A DNA stretch of 64,000 nucleotides from Syntrophales bacterium. Its GTDB lineage: Bacteria > Desulfobacterota > Syntrophia > Syntrophales > Fen-1087. Below the pieces are notes generated by a model, which saw nothing but the letters and a program-made list of their open reading frames with translations, did no database searches and was not told the DNA's origin. This document shows positions 3,271-28,477 of the stretch, piece by piece; position 1 is the stretch's first letter, and every line of letters starts with the position of its first letter. The stretch covers positions 10,878-74,877 of the forward strand of contig JAXDBM010000049.1 of assembly GCA_034678725.1 (NCBI GenBank). The letters run 5' to 3'. The position numbers and the translations under genes are program-made.

Positions 3271-3579
3271 ATGGGGGATCGTTCCGACGCAAAGGAAGCA
3301 AAGGGGATGTCGCCGCTGATGATCGAAAAGATCGACCGGGTCCTCGAGCGGGTCAAGGACCCGGAGAGCGGGCTGCCCGTTTCCCGGCTTGGCCTGGTGA
3401 AGCGGTTCCGCTACAGCGAGCGCGAAAAAAAAATCTTCGTCTTCACCGACGTCTACCCGCACCTGCCCAAATGCGTCACCTGCGCCGCGATTGCCCGGAC
3501 GATCGTCTCCGCCATCATTCGGGACCTGACGGCGGAGCTGGAGCGCGAGTTTCCCGAGCTGAGCGTGGAGTTCGTCTGA
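3271..3579 (+). CDS. Small DUF59/MIP18-like protein (putative metal-sulfur cluster assembly factor family)
   Basis: V..V.DPESGLPVSRLGLV pattern followed by a conserved Cys region (PKCVTCAAIA), as in DUF59 proteins. The start is ambiguous (3271 or MSPLM at 3307). Confidence 0.55.
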   Translation: MGDRSDAKEAKGMSPLMIEKIDRVLERVKDPESGLPVSRLGLVKRFRYSEREKKIFVFTDVYPHLPKCVTCAAIARTIVSAIIRDLTAELEREFPELSVEFV

Positions 3580-3581
3580 TC

Positions 3582-4100
3582 TCAGAAGAACTTCCCGAAG
3601 GTCAGGCCCGCGTACATCGGGTCGTGGTTGGCCCGAAGGGTGCGCACCATGACCATGTGGAATTTTTCCTCCTTGGCGATCTTCTCGAAGAACTTTTTCT
3701 GGTCCCGGTCGCGGGACAGCTTGGCCAGCTCGGAGTAAAGAAGGATGGCGTTCTTTTCCGCCGCCATTGCGATCGCGCAGGCCTGGCCCACCGTCTCGAC
3801 CTTCTCCAGCCGTCTGTCCACCGTTTCGCCTTTGGGGAACAACCCATCCTGGACGATCGCTTCGAGATAGTCGTCGATTTCCGGGTTGCGCAGGGTCTGG
3901 TCGGTTCCCTTGAGTTCCGCCTGGACCTTGAAGTCCGAGAAGATCCGGAGATGGTTTGCCTCTTCCTTGGCGAGGTTCGTGAAGAGCTTCTTCAGGTCTT
4001 CCGCGTCGAACTTCTTTGCCGCCTTCGTGTAGAAGGCCATGCCGTCCTTTTCCGCCTTGATCGCAAAATCGAACACATCCAGTTTCTCGCGCTTTGCCAT
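3582..4100 (-). CDS. Rubrerythrin/ferritin-like di-iron domain protein without a rubredoxin domain
   Basis: Two ExxH motifs (EEANH, EEKFH) plus paired upstream Glu in a four-helix-type sequence. Convergent with 3271..3579, with 2 nt between the stops. Confidence 0.75.
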   Translation of the reverse strand: MAKREKLDVFDFAIKAEKDGMAFYTKAAKKFDAEDLKKLFTNLAKEEANHLRIFSDFKVQAELKGTDQTLRNPEIDDYLEAIVQDGLFPKGETVDRRLEKVETVGQACAIAMAAEKNAILLYSELAKLSRDRDQKKFFEKIAKEEKFHMVMVRTLRANHDPMYAGLTFGKFF

Positions 4101-4204
4101 GGTCTGCCCTCCTCATGTGCTGTCTGGGTTGATTTTTCGCGTAAACCGCCGCCCGAACATTTCTATCATGAAGCGGCGCCTTCCTCCCTGTCAAGAAAAA
4201 ACGG

Positions 4205-4573
4205 CTAATATACGGACTTTCTCCCTTCGAGAAGGCCCTTTTCCGTCTCCGGCTTCCCTTTGCACTCGGGCGGCATGGGGATCTCGTCGCCCGCCTCGCA
4301 GGGGAGGCCGCTCATGGATTTGGCCGCGCAGCGACCCGTCCGGAAACCGATCTCGTAGCAGGACAGAGCGCTTCCCGGACCGGCCGGTTTGGGCGATGCC
4401 GTCGTTGGCGCTGTTGCCGGCGCGGCCGGTTGCGCCGTTGCCTGCACGGCGGCGGGCTTGGGCTTGTCCGCCTGCGCCGGCCCCCCCTTGCCGGAATCGC
4501 CGCAGGCCGCAAAGAGCAGGCAAAGCGCCGCCAGCACGAACGGGATTGCCCGTTTCAAATTCGTTTTCTTCAT
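4205..4573 (-). CDS. Small lipoprotein (122 aa) with an Ala/Pro-rich linker and a Cys-containing C-terminal domain
   Basis: Internal ATG at 4573 of track ORF 4205..4966, with GGAGGC 8 nt upstream. Signal peptide plus lipobox: MKKTNLKRAIPFVLAALCLLFAAC. The start overlaps the upstream gene stop by 4 nt. Confidence 0.65.
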   Translation of the reverse strand: MKKTNLKRAIPFVLAALCLLFAACGDSGKGGPAQADKPKPAAVQATAQPAAPATAPTTASPKPAGPGSALSCYEIGFRTGRCAAKSMSGLPCEAGDEIPMPPECKGKPETEKGLLEGRKSVY

Positions 4574-5244
4574 TGTGATGCCTCCTGTTTGAACTGGGAT
4601 AAGAGCCAGCGGTAAACCGGCGCGAGGTCCTTCGCCACCTGCCCCTCGCGGGGGATCATGAAGATGAAGCAGCGCTTCTGCTCCGGGACAACGGCCACGT
4701 GGCGGATATTCCCCGGGTCGGGGGAGCCGCCGGCGAGCGTCCGCAACCGGTCGCGCATTTTTCCATTGCCGTAATAGAGAAGAAAACTGCTCTTCCCCCA
4801 GGTCAGCGTCTCCTGCTTCAGGCGGTCGGCGTTTGCGATCTTCGGCCCGCGGAAACGGCTGTACCCTTCTTCGATGAGATGCCCCTCGGCGCCAGGCGAC
4901 TGCCGAAGGTGAAGGGTGATGAACAGGCGGTCGTATTTGCGGATGATCTTTGAGACGGGCATCCACAGCCAGGAGTGCCTCGGCAGAAAGGTGATGGTGG
5001 CCTCCACCCCCTCCACGGGCGATTTTTTCGGCATGGCGAGTTTGGCGTGGTATCCGATCAGGCCGCCGATGTTGGTGAAGGTCTGGTCCGTCGGCTGAAC
5101 CACGGAAACGAGATCGGTAAAGGCGCTGCGGAAGATCCGCGTGTTCACCCGCTTCCCCCAGAAATAGCCGGCCCCCAGCATGAAGGAGAAGGCGAGAAAG
5201 AGATAGAAGAGGGGCTCTTTCGCCAGGTGGGCGTACTCAAACAT
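4570..5244 (-). CDS. Hypothetical N-terminally membrane-anchored protein (224 aa)
   Basis: One N-terminal TM segment (EPLFYLFLAFSFMLGAGYFWG) followed by a soluble domain. The start overlaps the ArsA-like gene end by 8 nt, and the stop overlaps the lipoprotein start. Confidence 0.65.
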   Translation of the reverse strand: MFEYAHLAKEPLFYLFLAFSFMLGAGYFWGKRVNTRIFRSAFTDLVSVVQPTDQTFTNIGGLIGYHAKLAMPKKSPVEGVEATITFLPRHSWLWMPVSKIIRKYDRLFITLHLRQSPGAEGHLIEEGYSRFRGPKIANADRLKQETLTWGKSSFLLYYGNGKMRDRLRTLAGGSPDPGNIRHVAVVPEQKRCFIFMIPREGQVAKDLAPVYRWLLSQFKQEASQ

Positions 5245-6199
5245 GGCCTGTGCCTCCGCGGTCCAGATGGGCCGTCAGGTCCTCGGCAATGCCGTAAAGG
5301 GGCGCCGGCCCGCCGAGAACGAACTCCCGGTTCAGGGCCACCGAGGTCGCGGGGACGGCGGCGCCCGCCCGGCGCTTCAGCGCGCCGGTGACGCGCTCTG
5401 CGGTGGGCCGGTTCTCTTCGGTGACCTTGTTGGCGATCAGGAGCGCCAGCGGCAGCTTGAGCTCCCGCAGCCCCTCGATGAGCCGCTCCGATTCCCGGAG
5501 CGACAGGAGATCGGGGTTGAAGACCACCACGACACCGCAATCTGCGCCCTGAAGGGTCCGGGTCAGGTCCCGGTAGTTCCCGTCAAGGGTCCTCAGGCGC
5601 TTGAGGATGTCGTCGTCCCGCTCGTCGTATTGCAGGCGGATCTCCGGGCTCTCCTCGCCTTCCTTCAGCGGTCCGCGGATCTTCTGGATCGTGTGGCGCT
5701 TGTCGAGGATCTGCCGGCGGATGGCCGTCAGACGCTCGATCCACGTGATGGTCACCTGGGGCAGGGCCAGGAACCGCAGGGTCAGCCCGGTGGGCGGCGT
5801 GTCGAAGACGATGTAATCGAAGGCTCCTTCCTCGCGAAGCGTCTTCTCGATGCTGTTCAGCAGGGCGTATTCCTCGATGCCGGGGGAGTATTTCAGGATC
5901 GAAAAGTACCGGTCCAGGTTCAGGGTCCGAAGATAGTGATAGGATTCGGACAGGACGCTGGTTTCCCGCTCCAGATAATCCCGGGACAGCTTTTTCAGGT
6001 CCACTTCCCGAAGCTGCAGGGTCGCGGAGAAGTTCCGCCTGCCGTCCACCAGCGAAACGCCGAAGACGTCCCCCAGATTGTGGGCCGGGTCCAGCGAAAC
6101 GGCCAGCACCCGCTTCCTTTGCGAGAGCTGCCAGGCGGCGGCGGCCGCCAGCGTCGATTTCCCGACGCCGCCCTTGCCGGTGAAAAATAGGATTTTCAC
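5237..6199 (-). CDS. ArsA/GET3-family P-loop ATPase (single ATPase unit, 320 aa)
   Basis: GKGGVGKST P-loop, DPAHNLGD and DTPPTGLTLRFL motifs matching the ArsA/Get3 signature DTAPTGHT. GTG start at 6199, 1 nt after the upstream ORF stop. Confidence 0.85.
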   Translation of the reverse strand: MKILFFTGKGGVGKSTLAAAAAWQLSQRKRVLAVSLDPAHNLGDVFGVSLVDGRRNFSATLQLREVDLKKLSRDYLERETSVLSESYHYLRTLNLDRYFSILKYSPGIEEYALLNSIEKTLREEGAFDYIVFDTPPTGLTLRFLALPQVTITWIERLTAIRRQILDKRHTIQKIRGPLKEGEESPEIRLQYDERDDDILKRLRTLDGNYRDLTRTLQGADCGVVVVFNPDLLSLRESERLIEGLRELKLPLALLIANKVTEENRPTAERVTGALKRRAGAAVPATSVALNREFVLGGPAPLYGIAEDLTAHLDRGGTGHV

Positions 6200-6200
6200 G

Positions 6201-6506
6201 TCAGTCGATCCCCAGGGTGCCGGCGATCTCGGCGAGCATGTCGCCGGCGTCCTCCGCCCGCCGGTGCAGGACCTGGATCTCCCGCTCCATGAAGGGAAGC
6301 AGCTCCACGGCCAGGAAACTGGGCGGCGAGGGCAGGCCCACGAAGGAGCCCAGCAGCAGCAGGGCGAAGATGTTTTCCAGCTCCTGGGCCTCCAGGCAGG
6401 TCAGGGATACGAGGTTCTCTCGCTGCAGCGCGCCGATGTCGGAGAAAATCCGGCGGCAGTAGCGGATCAGCGAAGATGTCTTCCTGTTCGATTTCGAGCG
6501 TGTCAA
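6201..6506 (-). CDS. Hypothetical small protein (101 aa), first gene of the ArsA-like operon
   Basis: This is the only ORF in the interval with non-shadow composition. TTG start, so the start is uncertain. The stop abuts the ArsA-like start. Confidence 0.45.
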   Translation of the reverse strand: MTRSKSNRKTSSLIRYCRRIFSDIGALQRENLVSLTCLEAQELENIFALLLLGSFVGLPSPPSFLAVELLPFMEREIQVLHRRAEDAGDMLAEIAGTLGID

Positions 6507-6571: not shown

Positions 6572-6609
6572 CATAAAACAGGGAGGCCCCGCCCGCGGGC
6601 GGGGCCTCC
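6572..6609 (-). terminator. Intrinsic terminator downstream of cstA
   Basis: Perfect 13-bp GC-rich hairpin GGAGGCCCCGCCC-GCG-GGGCGGGGCCTCC (6582..6609), followed on the minus strand by CTGTTTTAT. Confidence 0.6.
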
Positions 6610-6681: not shown

Positions 6682-8466
6682 TTACTGCTGCTCCTTCTTT
6701 CTCATCTTGTAGAAGTCGAAGATGAAGATGAAGTTGAGGATCAGCATGATGCCCATGATGATCTGGACCGTCCAGCCCTGGCCGGGGGCTTTGGCGATGT
6801 TGGCCGGCATGACGACGATCATGAACCAGATGATCGCACAGGTCACCGTGATCCAGAGCAGGTAGGCCGGCACGACCGCCATGACGGCGAATTTCGACTT
6901 CAGCTTCTTGGACACGAATGCCGCGCCGGTCATCAGGGCGATCGCGGCGATGAGCTGGTTCGCGGCGCCGAAGGAAGGCCACACGATGGTGAACTGCTTG
7001 CTCCAGGCGAGGTAGATTCCGATGGCCGCCGGCACCAGCGAGGCGATCCAGCGGTTCGTCAGGACGCTGTAGAGGCCCTTGGCTGCATCCTTCACGGGGG
7101 CCAGCATCTCGACAAGGCAGTACCGGGCGATGCGGTTCGTCGTATCCAGCGTCGTCAGCGCGAAGGCGGAGATCCACAGGCCGGCCAGGATCTTGACGAT
7201 CTTCGTGGGGATGAAGCTGAGGAAGCTTGCCGCCACCATGTCGGCGTAGGTCTGGACGACGAGGTTCGCCTGATCGAGTTTCAGAGACGACGATATCTTG
7301 GTGAAGAGCTCGCCCCAGTTGTCGAGCGTCAGGGCGAAAACGGGGGCTGTGAAGGCGGCGCCCGAAGCGGCGGCCTTGGCGGCGTCGGCGGCCACCTGGG
7401 CGGCGTGGCCGTTCTTCAGGGCCGTGAAGCCGAAGCCCGCGATGCCGCAGATCACGATCGTGGAGAGGAACCCCTCCGTGAACATGGAGCCGTAGCCGAT
7501 GAAGAGCCCGTCGGACTCCTTCGTGATCTGCTTGGACGATGTCCCCGAAGCCACCAGGGAGTGGAAGCCGGACAGCGACCCGCAGGCGATGATCAGCGGA
7601 ATGGCCGGCCAGAAGGGCGTCGGCTTTCCCCCGATCAGGTTGGGCGAGAACGTGGTGTAGGCGGGGATCTCGATCGCGTGGAAGGTGAAGAAGGCGGCGA
7701 TGAACCCGATGGCGATGCCGAAGTAGAGGAGCCAGGAGTTCAGGTAGTCCCGGGGCTGCAGCAGGATGTTCACCGGGATGGCCGCGGCGATGATGATGTA
7801 GATGAAGAGGATCACCAGCCAGGCCTCGAAGCTCAGGCGGACCGGGACGAGGGTTCCCAGCCAGATGGCGATGGCCATCATGACGATCCCGATGACCGTG
7901 GCGATGGGCAGGTTCATCTTCATCTGGTAGATGAGGTAGCCCAGAATGATCGCGGCGATGGTGACGAAGATCGAGGCGCCGGCGATCTCCGGCGTCTTCA
8001 CGAACATGGAGGAGATGACGGTGCCGAAGGCCGCCACGACCAGGATCAGGAGGAAGAAGACGATCCAGTAGAAGGCCGTGCCCGTCCGCTTGGAGATGAG
8101 GTCGGTGGCGACGAACTGGATGGACTTGCCGTCGTAGCGCATGGAGGCCATGAGCGCCAGGTAGTCGTGGACGGCGCCGATGAAGATGTTCCCCAGCCAG
8201 ACCCAGGCCAGGGCGGGGAGCCAGCCCCAGCACATGGCCATTGCGGGGCCGACGATGGGGCCCGCGCCCGCGATGGACGAGAAGTGATGGCCGAAGAGGA
8301 CCATTCGATGGGCCGGGACGTAGTCGATGCCGTCGTAGAGGCGCTTGGACGGGGCATCGATCTCGTCCGAGGCCCGGACAACATCCCGTTCGATCTTTTT
8401 TCCGTAGGTGAAGTACAGGCCTACGTAAAGGATGAAGCCGATGATGCCGATGATGGTGGTAGTCAT
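6682..8466 (-). CDS. cstA: Carbon starvation protein A family transporter (CstA/BtsT pyruvate-peptide transporter family)
   Basis: FGHHFSSIAGAGPIVGPAMAMCWGWLPA...GAVHDY signature in a 594-aa polytopic protein. The overlapping 6620..8233 ORF is an R/P/H-rich shadow. Confidence 0.9.
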   Translation of the reverse strand: MTTTIIGIIGFILYVGLYFTYGKKIERDVVRASDEIDAPSKRLYDGIDYVPAHRMVLFGHHFSSIAGAGPIVGPAMAMCWGWLPALAWVWLGNIFIGAVHDYLALMASMRYDGKSIQFVATDLISKRTGTAFYWIVFFLLILVVAAFGTVISSMFVKTPEIAGASIFVTIAAIILGYLIYQMKMNLPIATVIGIVMMAIAIWLGTLVPVRLSFEAWLVILFIYIIIAAAIPVNILLQPRDYLNSWLLYFGIAIGFIAAFFTFHAIEIPAYTTFSPNLIGGKPTPFWPAIPLIIACGSLSGFHSLVASGTSSKQITKESDGLFIGYGSMFTEGFLSTIVICGIAGFGFTALKNGHAAQVAADAAKAAASGAAFTAPVFALTLDNWGELFTKISSSLKLDQANLVVQTYADMVAASFLSFIPTKIVKILAGLWISAFALTTLDTTNRIARYCLVEMLAPVKDAAKGLYSVLTNRWIASLVPAAIGIYLAWSKQFTIVWPSFGAANQLIAAIALMTGAAFVSKKLKSKFAVMAVVPAYLLWITVTCAIIWFMIVVMPANIAKAPGQGWTVQIIMGIMLILNFIFIFDFYKMRKKEQQ

Positions 8467-8835
8467 GAACTTTCTCCTTTCGTTGGATGAAAAAAATTAA
8501 GATAAAGAACCGGTCCCTGCTTCGGGATTACATCTATTACATTACAGACGTGACCGGGTGGTCCGGCATCGTCTGCGTTTCCCTGACTTCCTTCAAGCTG
8601 TCCGGATTTCGCTTGCCCGGAGCTTGAAAGGACCCCGCACATGGGTGCAAATTTAGTCCCATCAAAATTGAAAGTCAATCATTTTTCCTGGCCCGCCCAT
8701 CCGCAAAGAGTTCATTTTTCTTGACTTCGAGGTTTTACGGGAGCATCATTCTGGCAAGTGAACCGGGGGCGGGGCAGGCCGTTTTCCGTGCCTATGTTCA
8801 GTTCCGCTTCGAACCTTTTCGCGGGAGGTGACAAG

Positions 8836-9438
8836 ATGCCACAGGACGCGCAAACCGGATCCGCCGTCGAGGACCTCAGGATCGGCGGCAAGATCAGGGA
8901 TCTTCGGGAAAAGAACTTTTTTACCCAGCAGGACCTGGCCGCCAAGACCGGGCTGACCAGGGCCGTTCTGGCGGAAATCGAGGCGGACGAGGTTATGCCG
9001 CCCGTGGCCACCCTGCTCAAGCTCGCCAGGGCGCTCAATGTGGGCATGGCGTATTTCTTCAAGGACGAGGCCCCGGTGGAGCAGGTCTCCATCACGCGGG
9101 CGGGGGAGCGGGTCCGCGTCAAGCGGCGGCCCCACCACCGTGAAGGCGAGGTCGATTACGTCTATGAATCCCTCGAGGCCCGCATGCCCGGCAAGCACAT
9201 GGAGCCGCTGCGGGTGGACTTCGTTCCCATGGAGACCGCCGACATGGTGTTCACCAGCCACGAGGGGGAGGAATTCCTCTTCCTCCTGGAAGGCACGCTG
9301 GAGTTCCGCACCAACGACCGGGTGGAAACCCTCTCCGCGGGCGATGCCCTGTATTTCGATTCCGTCCTGAACCACAGCTTCCGGTCGCTGACCGACCAGC
9401 CGGCCAGGGCCGTCGTGGTCGTCTGGAACAAGGTTTGA
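8836..9438 (+). CDS. XRE-family HTH transcriptional regulator with a C-terminal cupin domain
   Basis: ATG 8836 preceded by GGGAGGTG. HTH region IRDLREKNFFTQQDLAAKTGLTRAVLAEIE, then a cupin-like C-terminus (HEGEEFLFLLEGTLEF...GDALYFDS..NH). Confidence 0.85.
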   Translation: MPQDAQTGSAVEDLRIGGKIRDLREKNFFTQQDLAAKTGLTRAVLAEIEADEVMPPVATLLKLARALNVGMAYFFKDEAPVEQVSITRAGERVRVKRRPHHREGEVDYVYESLEARMPGKHMEPLRVDFVPMETADMVFTSHEGEEFLFLLEGTLEFRTNDRVETLSAGDALYFDSVLNHSFRSLTDQPARAVVVVWNKV

Positions 9439-9451
9439 CAGGGGGACCCCG

Positions 9452-10015
9452 ATGATTGAAATCCGTTTTCACGGGCGGGGCGGGCAGGGGACGGTGGTGG
9501 CCACCATCCTGCTGGCCAAGGCCTTTTTCCAGGCGGGCTGGCAGGTTCAGAGCTTCCCCTTCTTCGGGGTCGAGCGGCGCGGCGCGCCCGTCGAGGCCTA
9601 TGTCCGCCTGGACCGCAAGAAGATCCTGCTCCGGACCAACGTGACGGAACCCGACCATGTCGCCGTACAGGATCAGACGCTCCTGCACAGCATCAGCGTC
9701 ACCCGGGGCCTCAAGCCGGGCGGCTGGATCCTGATCAACAGCCCGTCGGCGCCCGCGGACCTCGCGCCCTTTGCCGGATTCCGGCTCGCTCACGTCGATG
9801 CGAACCGGATCGCCATTCAGCACAAGTTGGGGACGCGGACCCATCCCATCGTCAACACGACCATGATCGGCGCCTTTGCCCGGGTGCTGGAAATGCCGCC
9901 CCTGAAGGCCGTGGCGGAAGCCATTCGGGAGGACATCCAGACCGAGGCGGAGCGCAACATCGAGGCGGCCCGGGAGGCCTTTTCCCAGGTCTGCCTGGCG
10001 GGCATGATCGAATAG
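9452..10015 (+). CDS. 2-oxoacid:ferredoxin oxidoreductase, gamma subunit
   Basis: RFHGRGGQGTVVATILLAKA N-terminal signature of POR/VOR/KOR gamma subunits. Confidence 0.85.
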   Translation: MIEIRFHGRGGQGTVVATILLAKAFFQAGWQVQSFPFFGVERRGAPVEAYVRLDRKKILLRTNVTEPDHVAVQDQTLLHSISVTRGLKPGGWILINSPSAPADLAPFAGFRLAHVDANRIAIQHKLGTRTHPIVNTTMIGAFARVLEMPPLKAVAEAIREDIQTEAERNIEAAREAFSQVCLAGMIE

Positions 10016-10033
10016 CAAAGCGGGGAAGCGAGG

Positions 10034-11779
10034 ATGAACGAAGCCATGAAGCCAATACCCCTCTACATGCCGCGCACCTATCTCACCACGGAGAGCAACA
10101 AGACCGGTTCCTGGCGTTTCCTGCGTCCGCGGTACGACGAGAAGACCTCGCCCTGCAGCGCCGCCTGCCCGGCCGGCGAGGACATCGCCAGAATCGAGAT
10201 GCTGGCCGCGCAGGGGCTATTCAAAGAAGCGTGGGAGACAATCCTGCGGGAAAACCCCCTGCCGTCGGTCTGCGGGCGCGTCTGCTTCCACCCCTGCGAG
10301 GGCCGGTGCAACCGACGGGAGTTCGACGCGGCCGTGGCCATCCACAGCCTCGAGCGCTTTCTCGCCGATACGGCAATCCGCTACCGGATCACGCCGGAGA
10401 TGGAGACGCGGCCCGCGCAGCAGCGGAAAATCGCCGTGATCGGCTCCGGCCCGGCGGGCCTTTCGGCGGCGTGGTTCCTGTCCCTGCTGGGCTATGCCTG
10501 CCATGTCTACGAGGCCTCGTCCGAGGCGGGCGGCGTGCTGCGCTGGGGGATTCCCGCGTACCGCCTGCCGCTGAACGCGCTCCGCCATGACCTGCGGCAG
10601 ATCGAGGCCCTGGGCGTCTCGATCTACACGGGAAGGCCGGTGGGCCCGGACCTGCTGGCGGACCTGAAAAGGGATTATGACGGGGTCTTCATCGGCTGCG
10701 GCCACGGCCGGGGAATGTCGCTGCAGGCGCCCGGCGAGGAGCTGCCGCAGGTCGGCGAGGGCCTGGATTTCCTGCGCGAACTCCGAGCGGGCGGGAAGCC
10801 CTCCTGCGGGGGGGTGTCGGCGGTTGTCGGCGGCGGAAACACGGCCGTCGACGTGGCGCGCAGCATCGTGCGCCTGGGCGGAAAGGCGCTGCTCCTCTAC
10901 CGGAGGAGGCGTCAGGACATGCCCGCCTTCGATCTGGAAGTGGAAATGGCCCTCGAGGAGGGCGTGGAGCTGCAGGAACTGGTCGCTCCGGCGGCTGTGG
11001 CTGCCGATGGGGACGGAGTCGTCCTGACGCTGCAGGAGATGAAGATCGCCGGCGAGGAGGGCGGCCGGGGGCGTATCGTGCCGGACGCGGGAAAAACGCG
11101 GCAGGTCCGCGTGGAGAGGGTCTTCAAGGCCATCGGCGCCGGTGCCGCGGAACCCTGGCACCGGCCCCCGGAAGGGGCGCCGGGCCTGCTGCGGTTGAGT
11201 CATGCCGTCCTGGTGCACGGGCAGCCGGGCGCCGTCACGGCCTTCGGCGGAGACTTGACCAACGATACCCGGAGCGCTGTCCATGCCGTCGCCTCGGGCA
11301 AACAGGCGGCCATGGCGTTCGACACGCTTTTTCGGGAAGGGGTCGATGCAATCGTTCCGAAGCTGGATTCCTGCCGGGTCGGCGGTGGCCCGTCGCTTTC
11401 CATGGAGATTTACATGGGCGGGGAGCGGCGGTTGAGGAACCCCCACGTGGTCCGCTTCGAGGAAATCAACACCGATCACTTCCAGTTCGCTTCCCGGGTG
11501 ACCCAGCCGCGCCTGCTCCGGGACGAGCGGATCCGGTCGTTCGAGGAGATCGACCTGAAGATTTCCGCCCACCTGGCCATGAAGGAGTCCGAGCGCTGCT
11601 TCAACTGCGGCCTGTGCAACCAGTGCGACAACTGCTTCATCTTCTGCCCGGACACCTCGGTGATCCGGGACAAGGACCATCAGGGACGGCACATCAACTA
11701 TGACTACTGCAAGGGGTGCGGCCTGTGCGTGGTGGAATGCCCGCGCAACGCCATGTCTCTCGAGGAGGAGAAGTCATGA
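10034..11779 (+). CDS. Fusion protein: OFOR delta-type ferredoxin elements split by a GltD/NfnB-like FAD/NAD(P)H oxidoreductase module
   Basis: N-terminus TGSWRFLRPRYDEKTSPCSAACPAG (delta-subunit-like). GltD-like Fe-S region PLPSVCGRVCFHPCEGRC. Dinucleotide folds IAVIGSGPAGLSAA and VVGGGNTAVDVAR. C-terminal 2x[4Fe-4S]: CFNCGLCNQCDNC...CKGCGLCVVECP. Confidence 0.85.
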   Translation: MNEAMKPIPLYMPRTYLTTESNKTGSWRFLRPRYDEKTSPCSAACPAGEDIARIEMLAAQGLFKEAWETILRENPLPSVCGRVCFHPCEGRCNRREFDAAVAIHSLERFLADTAIRYRITPEMETRPAQQRKIAVIGSGPAGLSAAWFLSLLGYACHVYEASSEAGGVLRWGIPAYRLPLNALRHDLRQIEALGVSIYTGRPVGPDLLADLKRDYDGVFIGCGHGRGMSLQAPGEELPQVGEGLDFLRELRAGGKPSCGGVSAVVGGGNTAVDVARSIVRLGGKALLLYRRRRQDMPAFDLEVEMALEEGVELQELVAPAAVAADGDGVVLTLQEMKIAGEEGGRGRIVPDAGKTRQVRVERVFKAIGAGAAEPWHRPPEGAPGLLRLSHAVLVHGQPGAVTAFGGDLTNDTRSAVHAVASGKQAAMAFDTLFREGVDAIVPKLDSCRVGGGPSLSMEIYMGGERRLRNPHVVRFEEINTDHFQFASRVTQPRLLRDERIRSFEEIDLKISAHLAMKESERCFNCGLCNQCDNCFIFCPDTSVIRDKDHQGRHINYDYCKGCGLCVVECPRNAMSLEEEKS

Positions 11780-12945
11780 AACGCGTCCTGGAAGGAAGCC
11801 ATGCGGTGGCGGAAGCGGTGCGGCTGGCGAAGGTGCAGGTGATCTCCGCCTATCCGATCACGCCGCAGACCCATATCGTTGAGATCCTCTCGGAATACTG
11901 CACCAAGGGGGCGATGAGCGCCAAGTTCCTTCGAGTGGAGAGCGAGCATTCCTGCATGGCCGCGCTGATCGGCGCCCAGACTGCGGGAGTCCGGACTTTC
12001 ACCGCCACCTCCGGACAGGGGCTGGCCCTGATGCACGAGCTGCTCCACTGGGCGGCCGGCGCCAGGCTTCCCATCGTCATGGCCGAGGTCAACCGGGCCC
12101 TCGCGCCGGGCTGGAACATCTGGATCGACCAGACGGACAGCCTCGCCCAGCGGGACACCGGCTGGATCCAGATGTACTGCGAAGACGGCCAGGAAGTCCT
12201 CGACACGACGCTCCAGGCCTTCCGCCTGGCCGAGACGGTCAACCTGCCCGTCATGGTCGTTCTGGATGCCTTCTATCTCTCCCACACCTACGAGGCCGCC
12301 GACGTGCCCGCGCAGGAGGAGGTTGACGGCTTCCTGCCGCCCTATGTGCCGCGGTTTCAACTGGACACGGCTCACCCATGCGGTTTCGGGCCCCTTGTCC
12401 CCCCGGCCGATTACATGGAGATGCGCCACAGCATCGCCATGGCCATGGAGGAGGCCCTGGTCCGGTTCGACGAGATCGAGGACGACTTCGCCGGCCGCTT
12501 CGGCCGCCGCTATGGGCCGGTGGAGGCCATCGGCTGCGAGGACGCCGAGATCGTCTTCGTCACGACCGGAACGCTGACGAGCACCTGCCGTCTCGTGGTG
12601 GATGAATTGCGGTCGAAAGGGGATAAGGCGGGGATCCTGAAGCTCAAGCTCCTGCGCCCCTTTCCCTTCGAGCGGATCCGTCAGGCGCTGAAGCGCGCGA
12701 AGAAGGTGGCCGTCATCGACAGGAATTTCTCGTTCGGCGCCGGCGGGATCTTCGCCCAGGAGGTGCGGGCCGCCCTGTGCAACGTCTCGGACCACCCGCC
12801 CGTCTTCGGCTTTGTCGCCGGCATCGGCGGCCGGGACGTCACGCCCGGGCTGCTGATGGAAATCTACGAACAGGTCAGGAAAAGCGAGGCGCCGCAAAGG
12901 GAGAGTGTCTGGATGGGCCTGAAGGAGGTCAATCATGCCGACTGA
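11776..12945 (+). CDS. 2-oxoacid:ferredoxin oxidoreductase, alpha subunit
   Basis: ATG 11776 overlaps the upstream stop (ATGA). MKRVLEGSHAVAEAV...ISAYPITPQT signature. Confidence 0.9.
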   Translation: MKRVLEGSHAVAEAVRLAKVQVISAYPITPQTHIVEILSEYCTKGAMSAKFLRVESEHSCMAALIGAQTAGVRTFTATSGQGLALMHELLHWAAGARLPIVMAEVNRALAPGWNIWIDQTDSLAQRDTGWIQMYCEDGQEVLDTTLQAFRLAETVNLPVMVVLDAFYLSHTYEAADVPAQEEVDGFLPPYVPRFQLDTAHPCGFGPLVPPADYMEMRHSIAMAMEEALVRFDEIEDDFAGRFGRRYGPVEAIGCEDAEIVFVTTGTLTSTCRLVVDELRSKGDKAGILKLKLLRPFPFERIRQALKRAKKVAVIDRNFSFGAGGIFAQEVRAALCNVSDHPPVFGFVAGIGGRDVTPGLLMEIYEQVRKSEAPQRESVWMGLKEVNHAD

Positions 12946-13831
12946 CGACATCATGACGGATATCATGGACCGGGAATACGTCCACTCGGGGCACGTCGGG
13001 TGTCCCGGCTGCGGCGCCACGATCGCCATGCGCTTCCTGCTCAAGGCCCTGGGGGAGAAGACCATGATGGTGCTGCCGGCCTGCTGCTGGTCGGTGATCG
13101 CGGGACCCTATCCCCAGTCCACCTTGAACATTCCGGTGATTCACGCGGCCTTCGAAACGGGGGGCGCGACGGCCACCGGGGTCCGGGCCGCCCTGGACAT
13201 GAAGGGGGATCGGGAAACGACGGTCGTCACCTGGGCCGGCGACGGCGGGACCTTCGACATCGGCTTTCAGGCGCTCTCGGGCGCCGTGGAGCGCAACGAG
13301 GACTTCATCTACGTCTGCTACGACAACGAAGCCTACATGAACACGGGCATTCAGCGCAGCTCGTCCACGCCCTACGGGGCCTGGACGACGACCACCACCG
13401 GCGCGGACTGGAAAAAGCTGCGCAAGAAGAACATCGTGGAGGCCCTGGTGGCCCACCGGATCCCCTACGCGGCGACGGCCAGCATCGCCTTTCCGGACGA
13501 CCTGCTCCGCAAGGCCCGGAAGGCGAAGGAGGTGAAGGGCTCCCGGTTCCTTCACATCTACGCAAGCTGCCCCACGGGCTGGCGCATCCCCTCGGAGATG
13601 TCCGTCCGGATCGCCCGCATGGCCGTCCAGACCAACATCTTTCCCCTCTACGAGGTGGAAAACGGCCTGCGGTACACCATCAACTACAAGCCCCGCGAAT
13701 ATCTCGTCCGCGAGTATTTCAAGCTCCAGGGGCGCTTCCGGCACCTGACCGACGCCGACCTCGACGAGATCCAGAAGATGGTCGACGAGGACTGGGCATT
13801 GCTCCTCCGCAAGGCGGGCGAGCGCGCCTGA
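12935..13831 (+). CDS. 2-oxoacid:ferredoxin oxidoreductase, beta (TPP-binding) subunit
   Basis: CPGCG motif and the TPP motif GDGGTFDIG...YDNEAYMNTG. Overlaps the alpha subunit gene by 11 nt. Confidence 0.9.
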   Translation: MPTDDIMTDIMDREYVHSGHVGCPGCGATIAMRFLLKALGEKTMMVLPACCWSVIAGPYPQSTLNIPVIHAAFETGGATATGVRAALDMKGDRETTVVTWAGDGGTFDIGFQALSGAVERNEDFIYVCYDNEAYMNTGIQRSSSTPYGAWTTTTTGADWKKLRKKNIVEALVAHRIPYAATASIAFPDDLLRKARKAKEVKGSRFLHIYASCPTGWRIPSEMSVRIARMAVQTNIFPLYEVENGLRYTINYKPREYLVREYFKLQGRFRHLTDADLDEIQKMVDEDWALLLRKAGERA

Positions 13832-13885
13832 AGGGCGCGCACCGCAGACCGAAACGCCCCGCTCCACACGATCCCGCCGTGCCGA

Positions 13886-14512
13886 TTAGAAGTGGAATCC
13901 CAAACCGGCGCCGATCGTGAAGTAGCGGACCGTGTCCAGATCACCGAAACCCGAGGTATAGGCCGCCTCCAGGTTCACGGACAGGGTCGGATTGATGTAG
14001 ATGTCGGCGCCGAATCCGATCTTGGCGCAGGGATCCGTCTCGTCGGTCGATGTCGATGTCGGCAGGTACCCGGGAGCGCTGACCGTCGTGTCGAAAGACG
14101 CCCGCATCAGGCCCAGACCGGCGACGAAGTAGGGTTTGACGATCCCGGGCAGGGGCGGAAAGACTTTCGCCGCGGCCATGATCGTGAACACGTCCAGATC
14201 CGCGTCGAAGGTGGCCCGGTTATTGCCCCAGTTGACGGTTTCGCTGGCGTTGAAACCGGACAGATACTCGAAGACGGCTTCAACGGAAACGACCGGGTGC
14301 AGTTTGTACCCGACCTTGCCGTTGATGCCCCAGGAGTTGTCGAAGGACGGATCGAAGCCGTACGGCCGCACGTTGTCGAATTCCCCGGAATCAAAATTCT
14401 CCAGGGCATAGGTGCCCCCGATCCCGACGTACATCCCCCGGTCCGCCGCATAGGCGGAACCCGCCAGCAGGAACACCGCCACAATGCATCCGATGATAGA
14501 AAGCCTCTTCAT
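13886..14512 (-). CDS. Small outer-membrane beta-barrel protein (OmpA-barrel/OmpW-like class)
   Basis: Signal peptide MKRLSIIGCIVAVFLLAGSAYA, alternating amphipathic strands, and a C-terminal ...GAGLGFHF ending in Phe. Confidence 0.7.
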   Translation of the reverse strand: MKRLSIIGCIVAVFLLAGSAYAADRGMYVGIGGTYALENFDSGEFDNVRPYGFDPSFDNSWGINGKVGYKLHPVVSVEAVFEYLSGFNASETVNWGNNRATFDADLDVFTIMAAAKVFPPLPGIVKPYFVAGLGLMRASFDTTVSAPGYLPTSTSTDETDPCAKIGFGADIYINPTLSVNLEAAYTSGFGDLDTVRYFTIGAGLGFHF

Positions 14513-23658: not shown

Positions 23659-24294
23659 TTAGAAGTTCCTTTTTTGTACGACAACTTCGCTTCCATTCAA
23701 CGTCTTTCTATGGGACGTTCTTTCCTCTTTGCCCGGCAAGTTCAGCTCCGGTGAGAGGACCAGCCGTGGCGGAAGCTCCTGTGCCCCGAGAATATTGACC
23801 AGCAGATCAAGGCCAGCCACTATTTCCTTCAGTTTCATGAGAGTAAGATCCTCCAGCCCGGAAACCAATAAATCCTGGTGGACCTGTGGCGCTTTTGTCA
23901 CTAACGCATTGCCTTCATCGGTCAGCTCCACATGAACAACCCTTCGGTCGCCGGCGGTTCGTACCCGCTTGATCAGTCCCTGCAATTCGAGGCGATTGAG
24001 TATGCCCACGACGGTTGCGGGATGAAGATACATGCGAAGCGCAAGATCCGAAACCCTTACCGAAGAGGATGCCGCAATGGTCTTGATTGCCCACAGCTGT
24101 GGTCCCGTAAGCCCCGTTTTTCGTTTTGCCCTTTTGGACTGTTCGTTGATGACCTGGAAAATGCGTCTAATGTTATCGATGATATCGGATACTAAAGCTG
24201 ATTTTCTTGCCATATTCCCAACTTTCACCCCGATCCGGTACGGGTGGTAAAATTCATCATGCATCCGCACCATCGTTTTCAGTGCACGGGTCAA
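23659..24294 (-). CDS. MarR-family transcriptional regulator
   Basis: Winged-helix region LTGPQLWAIKTIAASSSVRVSDLALRMYLHPATVVGILNRLELQGLIKRVRTAGDRRVVHVELTDEG. The start is ambiguous (24294, or ATG 24213 giving MARKSALV...). Confidence 0.8.
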   Translation of the reverse strand: MTRALKTMVRMHDEFYHPYRIGVKVGNMARKSALVSDIIDNIRRIFQVINEQSKRAKRKTGLTGPQLWAIKTIAASSSVRVSDLALRMYLHPATVVGILNRLELQGLIKRVRTAGDRRVVHVELTDEGNALVTKAPQVHQDLLVSGLEDLTLMKLKEIVAGLDLLVNILGAQELPPRLVLSPELNLPGKEERTSHRKTLNGSEVVVQKRNF

Positions 24295-24351
24295 ATTGTC
24301 TTTTCACTTTGCTTCTCATCCCGACGGATTCATGTCGATCGTCTCTTTTTC

Positions 24352-24365
24352 ATTAGTATACTAAT
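24352..24365. promoter_or_regulatory. Perfect 14-bp palindrome, candidate MarR operator
   Basis: ATTAGTATACTAAT lies in the divergent marR/24601 intergenic region, 18 nt upstream of a TTGACA (24383..24388). Confidence 0.4.
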
Positions 24366-24600
24366 CATTTCTGTAGAAATCAATTGACAAATTACAGCGA
24401 TTTCGAATATTCTACACATGCTGCGTGATGATGTGGACCGCTGCAGATGAAATGTGAAACAATATTCAGCCTGCTGCGACCCGCTCATGAAATGCGTCAT
24501 TTCAATCCGCCTGCACACAATCTAATCATTGCAATGACAGTGAATTGCGCGAAAAGAATGAAAACAAGGGCTATTTTTCGATAAGATGAAGGAGGAAATC

Positions 24601-25296
24601 ATGAAGACCAACATTTTTGTCAGTGCTCTGGTGACGGCCGTTCTCATTGCCATTGCCGGAATCGGCGCCTATTTCATTTTGCCGAGACTGATCCAGGAAA
24701 ACACTTCTGATCTGAATTTACAGATAAAACAGGCAAATGAGCGTCTGCAGAAAATAGAGGGATCTATCGCTGTCTCGGAACAGGCGAGCAAGGAAGGCCA
24801 GTTGAAAATCGGTGCAGATGCCCAAACGATTGTCAATATGGTGAACCGGCAAATTTCGCGCATCGACGCCTTGAGCGTCCAGACCAAGGGAGACATAAAG
24901 CGAATCGACGATGAGATGACCCGACAGAAAAACCGAATCGAGAAAGGCCTCAAGGAACAGGAAGAAACTGCCAAGAAAATCGACGATGCGACGAAGTCTC
25001 TCGCTCAGACCGCTCAGTTTCGAGGACTATTGGCGAATATCAAAAGGCAGATTCTGAAAGTTCGTCTGGAAATCAGCGACAAGAATATCGGCAACGCCAA
25101 GAATGAATTGAATCTGATCGACGCGCGGTTCGGCCAGGCATCGGCCCTGACTTCCGCTCAGGAAAAAACAACCTTGAAAGAATTGCATCAAATGCTGCAG
25201 AAGGTCAGGGCCGATCTGGATACGAATCTCGCCTCGGCAGCCAATCGTCTGGATCTCTTGTGGCACGAATTGGAGAAAGTGCCGGAGCAGCCGTAA
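24601..25296 (+). CDS. Hypothetical membrane-anchored coiled-coil protein
   Basis: ATG 24601 preceded by GGAGG (24591..24595). N-terminal TM segment (IFVSALVTAVLIAIAGIGAYFIL), then a long Q/K/E-rich heptad-like sequence. AT-richer than its surroundings. Confidence 0.6.
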   Translation: MKTNIFVSALVTAVLIAIAGIGAYFILPRLIQENTSDLNLQIKQANERLQKIEGSIAVSEQASKEGQLKIGADAQTIVNMVNRQISRIDALSVQTKGDIKRIDDEMTRQKNRIEKGLKEQEETAKKIDDATKSLAQTAQFRGLLANIKRQILKVRLEISDKNIGNAKNELNLIDARFGQASALTSAQEKTTLKELHQMLQKVRADLDTNLASAANRLDLLWHELEKVPEQP

Positions 25297-26486
25297 TGGA
25301 TGTTCCGCTTCTGTTTTTCATCGCCGGGGGCATCATCCTCGTCGGTTTCCTGGGCGATTATGTTTACGAGAAGATCAAGATTCCTGACGTGCTGGTTCTG
25401 CTCGGAATCGGCATTCTTCTCGGGCCTGTTTTCGGGATGGTCGATCACCAGCGGCTTGCCGAGTTCGCCGAGTATTTCGGGACCTTCGCCCTCATCGTCA
25501 TCCTGTTTGAAGGGGGCATGGACGTCAAAATCAGCATGCTGCTGCGGGAACTCGGAAACGCCACGATTCTCGCGACCCTTTCTTTTGCGTCCACGACGGG
25601 GGCCATCACGGCTTTTCTCTTTTACGTCCAAGGGTGGCAATTCTTCCCAAGCATCATGATGGCCAGCGTTCTGGGCTGCACCAGCGCGGCCATCGTCCTC
25701 CCTATCGTCGCGAAAATGTCCGTCAAGGACGAAACCCGAACCGTCGTCGGCGTCGAATCGGCGGTGAGCGATGTTCTGGCCGTGGTTCTGGTGATTTCCC
25801 TGATTGAATTCACCAAACTCGAAAGCATCGGAATCGAGAAGCCGCTGCGGGCGATCGCCAGCTCATTTTCCGTTGCCATCGTTGCGGGGACGGTTTTCGG
25901 GTTTTTCTGGTTCAAGGTGTTGAATGTCCTGGAAGAACGAAAATATTCCTACATGGTCACGCTGGGCGCCATGCTGATTGTTGTCGCGGCGGTCGATTAT
26001 CTGGGCGGAAGCGGTCCCATCGCGGTTCTCATCTTCGGGATCATTCTCGGCAACTGCGGCGACATCCCCTTTATTCGGGGTTCCGGCCGGTGCGGCCTGA
26101 TCGACGAGACGATCAAGTTCTTTCACGGCGAGGTCACCTTTTTCATTCGAACCTTCTTCTTTGTTTATCTGGGAATGATGATCACCTCCGCGGTCCTGTC
26201 GCCTCGGCACATTGCCGTCAGCCTTGCCTTGCTGTGCATTATCGTTCTCATGCGGTACCTGAGCGTCGAGTTCATGGTGAGAAGTTCCGGAAAAGGAAGG
26301 GAGGAGAAGAGCGCCTTTTTCTACATGCTTCCCCGCGGTCTGGCGACGGCTGTCCTGGCTTCGCTCCCGGTGGCCGCAGGCGTGGAAGGTTCCGAGAATT
26401 TTATCGTCTACGCCGTCAGTGTCATCATTTTAACGAATGTCATCATGACGTTCGGTGTGCTGAACATGGAAAGGAACAATACATGA
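25296..26486 (+). CDS. Cation:proton antiporter (CPA1/CPA2, Na+/H+ exchanger family)
   Basis: ATG 25296 overlaps the upstream stop (TAATG). Polytopic protein, MDVPLLFFIAGGIILVGFLGDYVYEKIKIPDVLVLLGIGILLGP, typical of a Na_H_exchanger N-terminus. Confidence 0.85.
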   Translation: MDVPLLFFIAGGIILVGFLGDYVYEKIKIPDVLVLLGIGILLGPVFGMVDHQRLAEFAEYFGTFALIVILFEGGMDVKISMLLRELGNATILATLSFASTTGAITAFLFYVQGWQFFPSIMMASVLGCTSAAIVLPIVAKMSVKDETRTVVGVESAVSDVLAVVLVISLIEFTKLESIGIEKPLRAIASSFSVAIVAGTVFGFFWFKVLNVLEERKYSYMVTLGAMLIVVAAVDYLGGSGPIAVLIFGIILGNCGDIPFIRGSGRCGLIDETIKFFHGEVTFFIRTFFFVYLGMMITSAVLSPRHIAVSLALLCIIVLMRYLSVEFMVRSSGKGREEKSAFFYMLPRGLATAVLASLPVAAGVEGSENFIVYAVSVIILTNVIMTFGVLNMERNNT

Positions 26487-26926
26487 AGCGGGACCACTTG
26501 ATCATTGCAAGTATAATCATTTCTTTCATATTCCTGGTCGTCTTCAATTTAGGAGGACACGGAAAATCAGCTTCCGCAAATGAAAGGGTTCCTTATCTGA
26601 TCGGCAAATGGAAAGGAGTATGTTCATTAAGTGTTAACACGAATGGCTTCGTTCCGATTAAAGCATCTTTGGTTCTTCATGTATTTGAGCAGATGGACAG
26701 AGACTTTATCGGATATATTGAAGGCTGGACGGATGGCATCCCATATCGAATGGAACTGTCGGGCGCAGTTGACACGCGGGATAGAAACATATTTGCAATC
26801 GATAAGAGCGGAATGATTTACAGCGGATATTTTGTAACCAGTTATCGAATGATCCTGTATGGCTTTGAAAATAAGGCTGAACCCAGAATCATTCAATACA
26901 AACTAAAAAAAATATCCGATCTATGA
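26483..26926 (+). CDS. Hypothetical exported or membrane-anchored protein (147 aa)
   Basis: ATG 26483 overlaps the antiporter stop (ATGA). N-terminal hydrophobic segment (LIIASIIISFIFLVVF). AT-rich codon usage. Confidence 0.55.
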   Translation: MKRDHLIIASIIISFIFLVVFNLGGHGKSASANERVPYLIGKWKGVCSLSVNTNGFVPIKASLVLHVFEQMDRDFIGYIEGWTDGIPYRMELSGAVDTRDRNIFAIDKSGMIYSGYFVTSYRMILYGFENKAEPRIIQYKLKKISDL

Positions 26927-27061
26927 AGGCAATGGCACGAAAACATTATCGGTGATGGCGAATGTGTTGACTCGAACGGTTATGATATGAAAAATTAAAT
27001 AATTAGGTCTTGGGCAGGGTTTTTGTCATAAGGTTAAAAAGCGAGCTGTCACCTCCGACTT

Positions 27062-28477
27062 ATGCAGAAACCCTGCTCGTCTTTTTTCGTTGTCTTTCGG
27101 GCCACGGAAACAACCATGAGAAATAAAATCGTCGAAGAGTCCGTTCTGTTTGTCAGCCTTCTGAAATGGCTCGTTCTGTCTTCCGTTGTCGGGATTACCG
27201 CAGGCGCCGCAACGGCCGCCTTCCTCAAAATCCTTCATGCAAGCATCGCGTTTGCGACCCCTCCGTCCCATGCCTTTTTTCTGCTGCCGGCGGGGCTTTT
27301 CCTGAGCGCCCTGCTGGTGAAATACGTGGCGCGGGAGGCAAAGGGGTACGGAACGGAAAAGGTGATCGAGTCCGTTCACAGGCATTCCGGGAGAATCCGT
27401 GCCGTCGTCGTGCCGGTCAAACTCGCCGCGACCGTCGTCACGGCAGCGGTCGGCGGTTCCGTGGGGCAGGTCGGTCCGAGCGCGCAGATCGGGGGCGGAC
27501 TGGCGTCCGTCCTGGCCGGGTTTCTGAAATTCGACGATAACGATCGGAAGAAACTCGTCATCTGCGGGATCAGTGCCGGATTTTCCGCCGTTCTGGGCGC
27601 ACCGGTGTCCGGCGCCATCTTCGGGGTGGAAGTCCTCTTTGTCGGAACGCTCCTGTATGAGGTTCTTCTGCCTTCTTTCGTCGCGGGCATCATCGGTTAT
27701 CATACGGCTTCCTTCCTCGGCGTCACATACTTTCACTACCCCATTCGCGCGATATCGGCCTTCTCCGACGCCTTTTTCCTCGAAATCATCGTTTCCGGAA
27801 TTTTCTTCGGAATTTGCGCAATCGTTGTCATCGAGACGGTGCACGGTGCCGATCGCCTGTTTGCGAAGGTCAGAATCTGGCAGCCGCTTCAGGCGATCCT
27901 GGGCGGTGTCGTCCTGGCGCTCCTCGCGTCTGTTTTTTCCGCAAAATATCTGGGGCTCGGACTGAACACCATCCAGGAGGCGCTCCAGGGGGTCCGGATG
28001 GTTTCCTATGATTTTTTGATGAAGACGGTCTTTACCGCCATCACCTTCGCTTCCGGCGGGAGCGGCGGGATCATCGCGCCGATTCTGTTTGTCGGAGCGA
28101 CGGCCGGCAGCTTTTTCGGGGACCTGCTGAGCCTGGACCGGGCAACCTTTGCTTCGATCGGAATGGTGAGCGTCCTGGCAGGAGCGGCGAATACGCCCGT
28201 CGCCATGAGCATGCTGGCCATCGAGCTGTTCGGGGGCGAGATCGGCGCCTACGCGGCCGTCGCCTGCGTGATCAGTTTTCTCATCTCCGGGCACCGCAGC
28301 ATTTTTCCGACGCAGGTCATGGCCATGAAAAAATCATCCTCCGTCGATGTGGAACTCGGGAGGGAAGTGGAAAATGTGAAGACGCGGTTCAAATATCGGG
28401 AAAAAAGTTTCATCGGGCAGGGGATCCGGCTGAGGGATAAAATCAGAAGAAGAATCCAAAATGGCGGAGGGGAATGA
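27062..28477 (+). CDS. ClC-family chloride channel/transporter homologue with no CBS domains
   Basis: ClC signature blocks GYGTEK (the GSGIPE position), GGSVGQVGPSAQIGG (the GREGPxxQIG position) and GGIIAPILFVG (the GxFxP position). The start is ambiguous (27062 or 27116). Confidence 0.85.
   Translation: MQKPCSSFFVVFRATETTMRNKIVEESVLFVSLLKWLVLSSVVGITAGAATAAFLKILHASIAFATPPSHAFFLLPAGLFLSALLVKYVAREAKGYGTEKVIESVHRHSGRIRAVVVPVKLAATVVTAAVGGSVGQVGPSAQIGGGLASVLAGFLKFDDNDRKKLVICGISAGFSAVLGAPVSGAIFGVEVLFVGTLLYEVLLPSFVAGIIGYHTASFLGVTYFHYPIRAISAFSDAFFLEIIVSGIFFGICAIVVIETVHGADRLFAKVRIWQPLQAILGGVVLALLASVFSAKYLGLGLNTIQEALQGVRMVSYDFLMKTVFTAITFASGGSGGIIAPILFVGATAGSFFGDLLSLDRATFASIGMVSVLAGAANTPVAMSMLAIELFGGEIGAYAAVACVISFLISGHRSIFPTQVMAMKKSSSVDVELGREVENVKTRFKYREKSFIGQGIRLRDKIRRRIQNGGGE

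Follow-up and report, generated by a model that had tools for sequence, protein, structure and literature searches.

The DNA examined here is a stretch of 64,000 nucleotides from a Syntrophales bacterium (contig JAXDBM010000049.1 of assembly GCA_034678725.1), called the window below, and the element in question is a tightly packed minus-strand operon built around an ATPase of the ArsA/Get3 class. We find that this locus is a new bacterial member, equipped with the gene cstY, of a cluster type described in 2010 and composed of cstA, cstX, an arsA homologue and cstY. We propose, tentatively and with slightly less than even confidence, that the products of cstX, the ATPase gene and cstY form an ATP-driven accessory module that energises or gates the transporter CstA. 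New in this analysis are a CCDC47-like fold in CstY and the wide distribution of the four-gene unit. What the single-domain ArsA/Get3 homologues of bacteria and archaea do has long been a gap in knowledge, and the cluster is among the few cases in which gene context names a specific partner, CstA.

The genes of the locus follow one another on the minus strand. A 101-aa open reading frame (ORF) with a TTG start, encoding a cstX-like small protein of the DUF7990/PF25952 family (6201-6506), is followed by the gene for a single-domain ArsA/Get3-class (SIMIBI) ATPase of 320 aa with a GTG start (5237-6199), by a cstY-like gene (4570-5244) whose 224-aa product has a hydrophobic helix at its N-terminus, and by the gene for a 122-aa lipoprotein (4205-4573). 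These four ORFs had been joined into one operon in an earlier note made from the sequence alone, and both the ORF listing and a reading of the sequence agree with its coordinates and junctions: a 1-nt gap between cstX and the ATPase gene, an 8-nt overlap (ATGTTTGA) between the ATPase gene and cstY, and a 4-nt overlap (ATGA) between cstY and the lipoprotein gene. Ribosome-binding sites (GGAGG/AGGAGG) precede the cstY and lipoprotein genes. On the same strand, 175 nt upstream of the cstX ORF, lies cstA (6682-8466), which encodes a 594-aa multipass transporter of the CstA family (Pfam PF02554, E 5e-131) and is the defining neighbour of the ATPase operon. In the interval that separates cstA from cstX, the terminator scan places a GC-rich hairpin of 12 bp with CTGTTTTATG after it (6582-6609, minus strand). 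The same note had called the ATPase non-arsenical and half-size, and this also holds, as the protein has 320 aa and one ATPase domain, and the Pfam gene tables show no ars genes, and no linkage to arsB, acr3, arsR, arsC or arsD, within about 8 kb on either side of it, the only part of the window screened for them. No paralogues of the operon genes were found in the window. Syntrophales-type metagenome assemblies, including GCA_002067595.1, contain an identical ATPase with the same genes around it.

The association of these genes is conserved far beyond this lineage. A profile of the 224-aa protein was scanned against one genome per species and detected relatives in 239 genomes; the best 80 loci were kept, and six more were reached through distant family members. 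The resulting 86 loci come from Thermodesulfobacteriota and Crenarchaeota, and the proteins of the window were mapped onto all of them. The genes cstA, cstX, ATPase and cstY are all present in 77 of the 86 loci, and 71 of these complete loci have them in this order on one strand. A further seven loci are incomplete solely through contig ends, and cstA adjoins in every locus whose contig extends far enough. Spacing is conserved as well: cstX lies directly before the ATPase gene with a gap that is almost always between -4 and +1 nt, and about -14 to +19 nt separate the ATPase gene from cstY. The coupling of the ATPase to a small and to a membrane-anchored protein, which the earlier note had put forward, is therefore retained across the loci, the exceptions being contig-end truncations and a lineage that lacks the ATPase. 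However, what is conserved is cstA together with three accessory genes and not the four-gene operon of that note: the lipoprotein, which had been taken for a fixed partner, has homologues in only 8 of the 86 loci, all of them close relatives.

The association with cstA survives gene rearrangement in distant lineages. In one distant locus (L089) the order is cstY, a 67-aa gene, cstA, cstX and ATPase; in another with an archaeal context (L090, with ABCE1/RLI nearby) cstA is divergent from the remaining genes; and cstA, although divergent or re-ordered, is still adjacent in L089, L090 and L092. Two small proteins, each with two predicted transmembrane segments, are encoded immediately upstream of cstA in such loci, one of 67 aa (L089:1848-2051, plus strand) and one of 100 aa (L092:6595-6897, minus strand). 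No Pfam family covers them. A C-terminal motif, LxGPxxxxGExPxAxxK, is common to both, and they possibly represent an additional accessory subunit of CstA.

Castillo & Saier (Int J Microbiol 2010:187373; PMC2963123) used SEED to find 26 bacterial and archaeal clusters containing cstA and an arsA homologue. These clusters comprise a single-domain ArsA homologue of about 300-330 aa, CstA and a protein of about 90 aa with one transmembrane segment, named CstX; a protein of about 210 aa, also with one transmembrane segment and named CstY, was reported in five archaea only, S. marinus among them. Their list of organisms with the cluster also includes Thermococcus kodakarensis. The same authors found congruent trees for CstA, CstX and ArsA and an absence of ars genes; in their proposal, CstA is energised by the ATPase, CstX being the coupling subunit and CstY an auxiliary one. 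Judged by size, hydropathy, gene order and shared archaeal genera, our locus matches this cluster type. It has a 320-aa single-domain ATPase, an adjacent cstA, and neither ars genes nor arsR. Like CstX, the DUF7990 homologues have about 93 aa and a 22-residue uncharged stretch, and are encoded directly before the ATPase. Like CstY, the 224-aa protein has a single N-terminal transmembrane helix and is encoded after the ATPase. As to shared genera, a profile of archaeal-type CstY members retrieves proteins from Staphylothermus, Ignicoccus, Sulfolobales and Acidilobaceae. There are also differences, in that CstY is not confined here to five archaea but is found in bacteria, with relatives in the 239 species-representative genomes, and in that the lineage of the window adds the lipoprotein gene. 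The earlier note had named placement of the partners in a known system as a result that would count against it. Their match to the 2010 cluster comes near to this, although that system has been described by bioinformatics only. Our literature search turned up neither experimental work that followed up the cluster nor any later paper on CstX or CstY, on DUF7990 or on cory-CC-star (see below).

The ATPase scores above the cut-off of TIGR00345, GET3_arsA_TRC40 (157.5 versus 135 bits), and matches Pfam ArsA_ATPase with an E-value of 1.3e-48. Against TIGR04291, which represents true ArsA, it reaches 84 bits, where the cut-off is 650. Among 79 orthologues, the P-loop GKGGVGKS is kept in 78, switch I (DPAHNLGD) in 73 and switch II (DTPPTGLT) in all. 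Because the catalytic motifs are thus essentially invariant, the ATPase is probably active. It belongs to the same family as the ATPase of the ArsA-ArsB pump, shares its catalytic motifs and is likewise paired genetically with a secondary carrier that it could energise. However, ArsA is tandem-duplicated, has about 580 aa and carries metalloid-binding cysteines, whereas this ATPase is not duplicated and has a single Cys; and, unlike an ArsA-ArsB locus, the present one has two additional small partners and lacks the ars genes named above.

Like Get3/TRC40, the protein is a single-domain ATPase of the homodimer type with a deviant Walker A, switch I and switch II. Its closest solved relatives are algal ArsA1 and, among single-domain proteins, the archaeal Get3 structures 3ug6 (E 2e-25) and 3zq6. 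Two features of its sequence set it apart from Get3/TRC40. Firstly, the CxxC zinc motif occurs in none of the 79 orthologues, which have a median of one Cys per protein; some archaeal and bacterial Get3 homologues likewise lack CxxC. Secondly, the region that matches helices 7-9 of Get3 together with the TRC40 insert is retained in length, but it is charged (36-40%) and devoid of methionine, with a median of 0 Met in 82 orthologues versus 8 in the aligned segment of MjGet3. As a test of composition alone, this argues against a classical groove for transmembrane segments. No Get1/2-type (Oxa1-superfamily) receptor is annotated in the neighbourhood (no genome-wide search was made), and no tail-anchored client is evident at the locus. 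Two candidate observations on the ATPase were rejected. A defence-system origin was dismissed, as the PADLOC match covers the P-loop only, and an apparent ATPase-CstY fusion (P0377, 323 aa; L094:798-2264), which would have spoken for direct interaction, is an artefact of a contig that has the ATPase in three frameshifted pieces.

For CstX, PF25952 was present in 120 of 120 listed homologues (336 were found), and a core of the form ELENIFALLLLGSFVGLPxPPxFLAVELLPFMERE is nearly invariant and can be recognised even in distant bacterial and archaeal copies; thirty residues are invariant, and these cluster in the hydrophobic core. Since most homologues have about 93 aa, the N-terminus of the 101-aa ORF may be over-extended. 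An AlphaFold2 (AF2) model, which is of low confidence (predicted local distance difference test score, pLDDT, 65), consists of helices 6-55 and 62-98, with the PxPP turn separating them. Hydropathy reaches at best a mean of 1.6 over 19 residues (Kyte-Doolittle, KD19), which is borderline for a transmembrane segment, and the 22-residue uncharged stretch is interrupted by prolines. We read the model as a helical hairpin with a hydrophobic tip, possibly a re-entrant one in the membrane, possibly one docked into a partner; alternatively, CstX may be a single kinked transmembrane helix. Residues 39-84 weakly match the NCBIfam family cory-CC-star of Corynebacterium (NF041419; E 3.7e-6, 26.8 bits, cut-off 80), which hints that CstX may have relatives in Actinobacteria under another name. 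Foldseek with the low-confidence model gave no match better than E 4. CstX showed no Pfam match to the Asterix family at E <=0.1, and no fold match to it.

The strongly conserved CstY family counts 394 members when clustered at 90% identity and 244 clusters at 50%, and no Pfam family scores above threshold for it. The AF2 model of CstY (pLDDT 85, predicted template-modelling score, pTM, 0.79) consists of a long N-terminal helix followed by an alpha/beta domain. The transmembrane part spans approximately residues 11-30, with a charge of -1 before the helix and +4 after it; because positive charges follow the helix, the positive-inside rule predicts that the C-terminal domain is cytoplasmic. Foldseek returned three significant matches only for this model among the structures of the PDB, namely 7tm3_4 (E 1.4e-8, query template-modelling score, TMq, 0.69), 9i78_4 (E 1.3e-7) and 6w6l_7 (E 1.2e-4). 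A sequence check identified all three, from human, rabbit and Chaetomium, as CCDC47, a factor of the eukaryotic multipass translocon that assists in making membrane proteins. These matches have a probability of 1.0 and template-modelling (TM) scores of 0.49-0.69, while the next ones, which include TtfA at rank 18, do not exceed a TM score of 0.37.

Sequence comparisons point in the same direction, though less sharply. In 46 of 104 diverse CstY members, the CCDC47 family PF07946 led the Pfam matches below threshold (best E 6.2e-5), and no other Pfam family recurred in more than five of the 104. Consensus sequences of CstY reached significance for PF07946 only (E 6.7e-5 and 3.5e-4, up to 22.6 bits), with matches that extend over the transmembrane helix and half-way into the domain. 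The CstY of the window itself scores 12.8 bits, below the gathering threshold of 27.7. When the CstY profile was aligned by hhalign with human CCDC47 alone, the juxtamembrane Y..G[KR]..N.R motif was the only part recovered, at a probability of 0.3-3.6%, and the profile had no match among PDB sequences. Taken with the predicted fold, we regard homology of CstY to CCDC47 as probable. Our literature search found no paper on prokaryotic CCDC47 homologues.

CstY and CCDC47, which belongs to the PAT complex, have in common a single transmembrane helix, a juxtamembrane G[KR]xxN motif and an alpha/beta domain that is cytosolic in CCDC47 and predicted to be so in CstY; in CCDC47, the helix and globular domain serve as a scaffold for the membrane partners SND3 and Asterix. 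However, the transmembrane helix of CstY is preceded by only about 10 residues, which leaves CstY without the lumenal acidic N-terminal domain of CCDC47; CstY ends after helix 203-223 and lacks the C-terminal latch/coiled-coil helices that bind the ribosome and Sec61; and no neighbouring protein at the locus matches the Asterix (WDR83OS) family. A second parallel is TtfA, the accessory factor of the mycobacterial transporter MmpL3 (6t84), which similarly combines an N-terminal anchor with an alpha/beta domain and has a multipass transporter as partner. Its fold match is weaker (probability 0.99, TMq 0.37, 152 columns aligned), and it has no ATPase partner and serves a different transporter family. 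CCDC47, TtfA and CstY may, on these structural comparisons, form a superfamily of anchored partners of transporters and translocons. In 14 of the loci, a tandem second copy of cstY (42-55% identity to the protein of the window) directly follows the first, for instance at L032:5204-5800, L049:6736-7365 and L086:6688-7344; it occupies the place that the lipoprotein gene has in this window.

As to complex formation, topology and coupling to transport, we infer the following arrangement. CstX, the ATPase and CstY, whose genes are translationally coupled, would assemble into a complex on the cytoplasmic side of the membrane, anchored by the N-terminal transmembrane helix of CstY, whose CCDC47-like domain would act as a scaffold. 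The hydrophobic-tipped hairpin of CstX would link this complex to CstA. The ATPase homodimer would open and close with ATP binding and hydrolysis, and this cycle would be passed on to CstA, such that substrate uptake is driven or gated. There is a precedent in arsenic resistance, where ArsA converts the carrier ArsB into an ATP-driven pump, and TtfA, with its CstY-like architecture of a transmembrane helix and an alpha/beta domain, further supports this proposal in that it serves a transporter. We consider energising or gating somewhat more likely than a role in transporter biogenesis because of the ArsA-ArsB precedent, the published co-evolution of the components and the non-hydrophobic character of the groove region. 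If the ATPase does energise or gate CstA, this would be a second, non-arsenical case of a secondary carrier made ATP-coupled, and it would matter for substrate scavenging in energy-limited syntrophs.

The structural relationships of CstY and the ATPase could instead suggest a dedicated system of membrane-protein biogenesis, in which the Get3-like ATPase and CstX deliver or assemble a hydrophobic client at a CCDC47-like receptor, CstY. This client would be either CstA itself or CstX, taken as a small CstA subunit, and such a system would be the prokaryotic equivalent of the GET and PAT factors of eukaryotes. That the CstY model matches CCDC47 alone in the PDB, with PF07946 as the recurrent top Pfam family, and that archaeal Get3 is among the closest solved relatives of the ATPase both fit this explanation, and the unusually conserved hydrophobic hairpin of CstX could sit in a groove. 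The hairpin after cstA, which suggests that the accessory proteins are expressed sub-stoichiometrically, would fit as well. On the other hand, the charged, methionine-poor helix 7-9/insert region of the ATPase and its lack of CxxC are not what Get3 would lead one to expect, the latch helices behind the known function of CCDC47 are missing from CstY, neither an Asterix-like partner nor a Get1/2-like insertase was found in the annotated neighbourhood, and in most organisms transporters of the CstA family are not known to need such factors for insertion. We think this explanation rather unlikely, although it is the main rival and still a live one. The envelope-directed delivery or assembly function suggested in the earlier note gains some support from the resemblance of the 224-aa protein to CCDC47 in fold; however, the ATPase lacks the methionine-rich groove signature of Get3.

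A bolder version holds that CstY is a true prokaryotic CCDC47 homologue which, with the Get3-class ATPase and CstX, would form an ATP-dependent machine for the insertion or assembly of multipass transporters, and thus a prokaryotic forerunner that links the GET and PAT branches. We judge it improbable. Given its occurrence in Crenarchaeota, CstY would possibly be close to the ancestor of CCDC47. If biogenesis were the correct explanation, the cluster would provide the first prokaryotic pairing of a Get3-type ATPase with a CCDC47-like membrane protein and would bear on the origin of the eukaryotic multipass translocon.

The hairpin between cstA and cstX is itself conserved. One of -20 kcal/mol or stronger is found at the same place in 70 loci, about 20-30 nt after the cstA stop codon and about 20-30 nt before cstX (for example, L042:4715-4766). 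Its consensus is ACCGGYGCACGG-loop-CCGTGCRCCGGTTTAAC, with compensatory changes at 12 of 12 pairs. Many copies lack a clear T-tract, and Rfam has no family for this hairpin. Its function may be to set the balance between expression of cstA and of the accessory genes, whether as a terminator, as an attenuator or by stabilising the mRNA.

Several observations weigh against our proposal that the module energises or gates CstA. The hairpin suggests that the accessory genes are expressed below cstA, and with lower expression a catalytic or regulatory factor fits better than a stoichiometric energising subunit. The metalloid-binding cysteines that make up the activator site of ArsA are absent from the ATPase. 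In addition, an archaeal-looking lineage (L092/L093) has cstA and cstY, with cstY divergent from the pair of the 100-aa gene and cstA, but neither an ATPase nor cstX nearby; a link between cstY and cstA can thus exist without the ATPase. This lineage resembles the ATPase-less Hyperthermus case of the 2010 paper (PMC2963123). The CCDC47 fold and the Get3 family point equally to a role in biogenesis. Finally, the CstA and BtsT proteins of E. coli function without any known partner of this kind.

As a secondary transporter, CstA belongs to the pyruvate/peptide:H+ symporter family. Divergent from cstA in the window, at 8758-13900 on the plus strand, lie a gene for a regulator with helix-turn-helix (HTH) and cupin domains and a multi-subunit 2-oxoacid:ferredoxin oxidoreductase operon. 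The pairing of this HTH-cupin/oxidoreductase context with cstA recurs in about 20 of 80 loci. The divergent oxidoreductase operon suggests pyruvate or another 2-oxoacid as the substrate of CstA.

The expression ratio and this gene context also bear on a further explanation, in which the ATPase dimer is an energy sensor that reports ATP/ADP and switches CstA through CstX and CstY without powering transport, in the manner of the nucleotide-binding regulators known from other carriers. SIMIBI ATPases are commonly nucleotide-dependent switches, an expression level likely below that of cstA would suit a regulator, and the position of cstA beside an oxidoreductase operon with an HTH-cupin regulator points to tightly controlled uptake. 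However, nothing speaks specifically for a sensor, and the sequence data do not separate it from the energising model. We consider a pure sensor quite improbable.

The genes downstream of cstY are much less constant. The lipoprotein has a signal peptide that ends in a lipobox-like FAAC, with the Cys at position 24, followed by a Pro/Ala-rich linker and a four-Cys C-terminal domain; it matches no family in Pfam or NCBIfam. It is a lineage-specific add-on, translationally coupled to cstY. Next, 104 nt downstream of the lipoprotein gene, lies a rubrerythrin-like gene (3582-4100, minus strand; Pfam E 2e-15), preceded by a promoter-like site, TTGACA-18-CATGAT, at 4165-4194 on the minus strand. Its product is ferritin-like, has no rubredoxin domain and weakly matches encapsulin-cargo ferritin families. 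A convergent DUF59-like gene of 102 aa (3271-3579, plus strand) matches DUF59/FeS_assembly_P at 17.6 bits, below the cut-off of 23.5. These two genes recur together downstream in 28 of the 86 loci.

In view of this neighbourhood, the adjacency of cstA could be inherited synteny, and the ATPase operon could serve an unrelated envelope or metal/redox function with the lipoprotein, rubrerythrin-like and DUF59-like genes. The terminator-like hairpin between cstA and cstX and the 28 loci with both downstream genes would be compatible with this. However, the link to cstA spans Crenarchaeota and Thermodesulfobacteriota, with CstY identities of 20-30%, and withstands re-ordering of the genes, the published trees are congruent (PMC2963123), the lipoprotein is found in so few loci, and the rubrerythrin-like gene appears to have a promoter-like site of its own. 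The conservation data largely refute the explanation, which we hold to be highly improbable. The hint at metal or redox cofactor handling in the earlier note was rejected likewise, given the sub-threshold DUF59 match, the limited recurrence of the two neighbours and the separate promoter-like site.

Elsewhere in the window, the G+C content is 0.50-0.52 at positions 24001-28000, versus about 0.62 in the remainder, and this segment may have been horizontally acquired.

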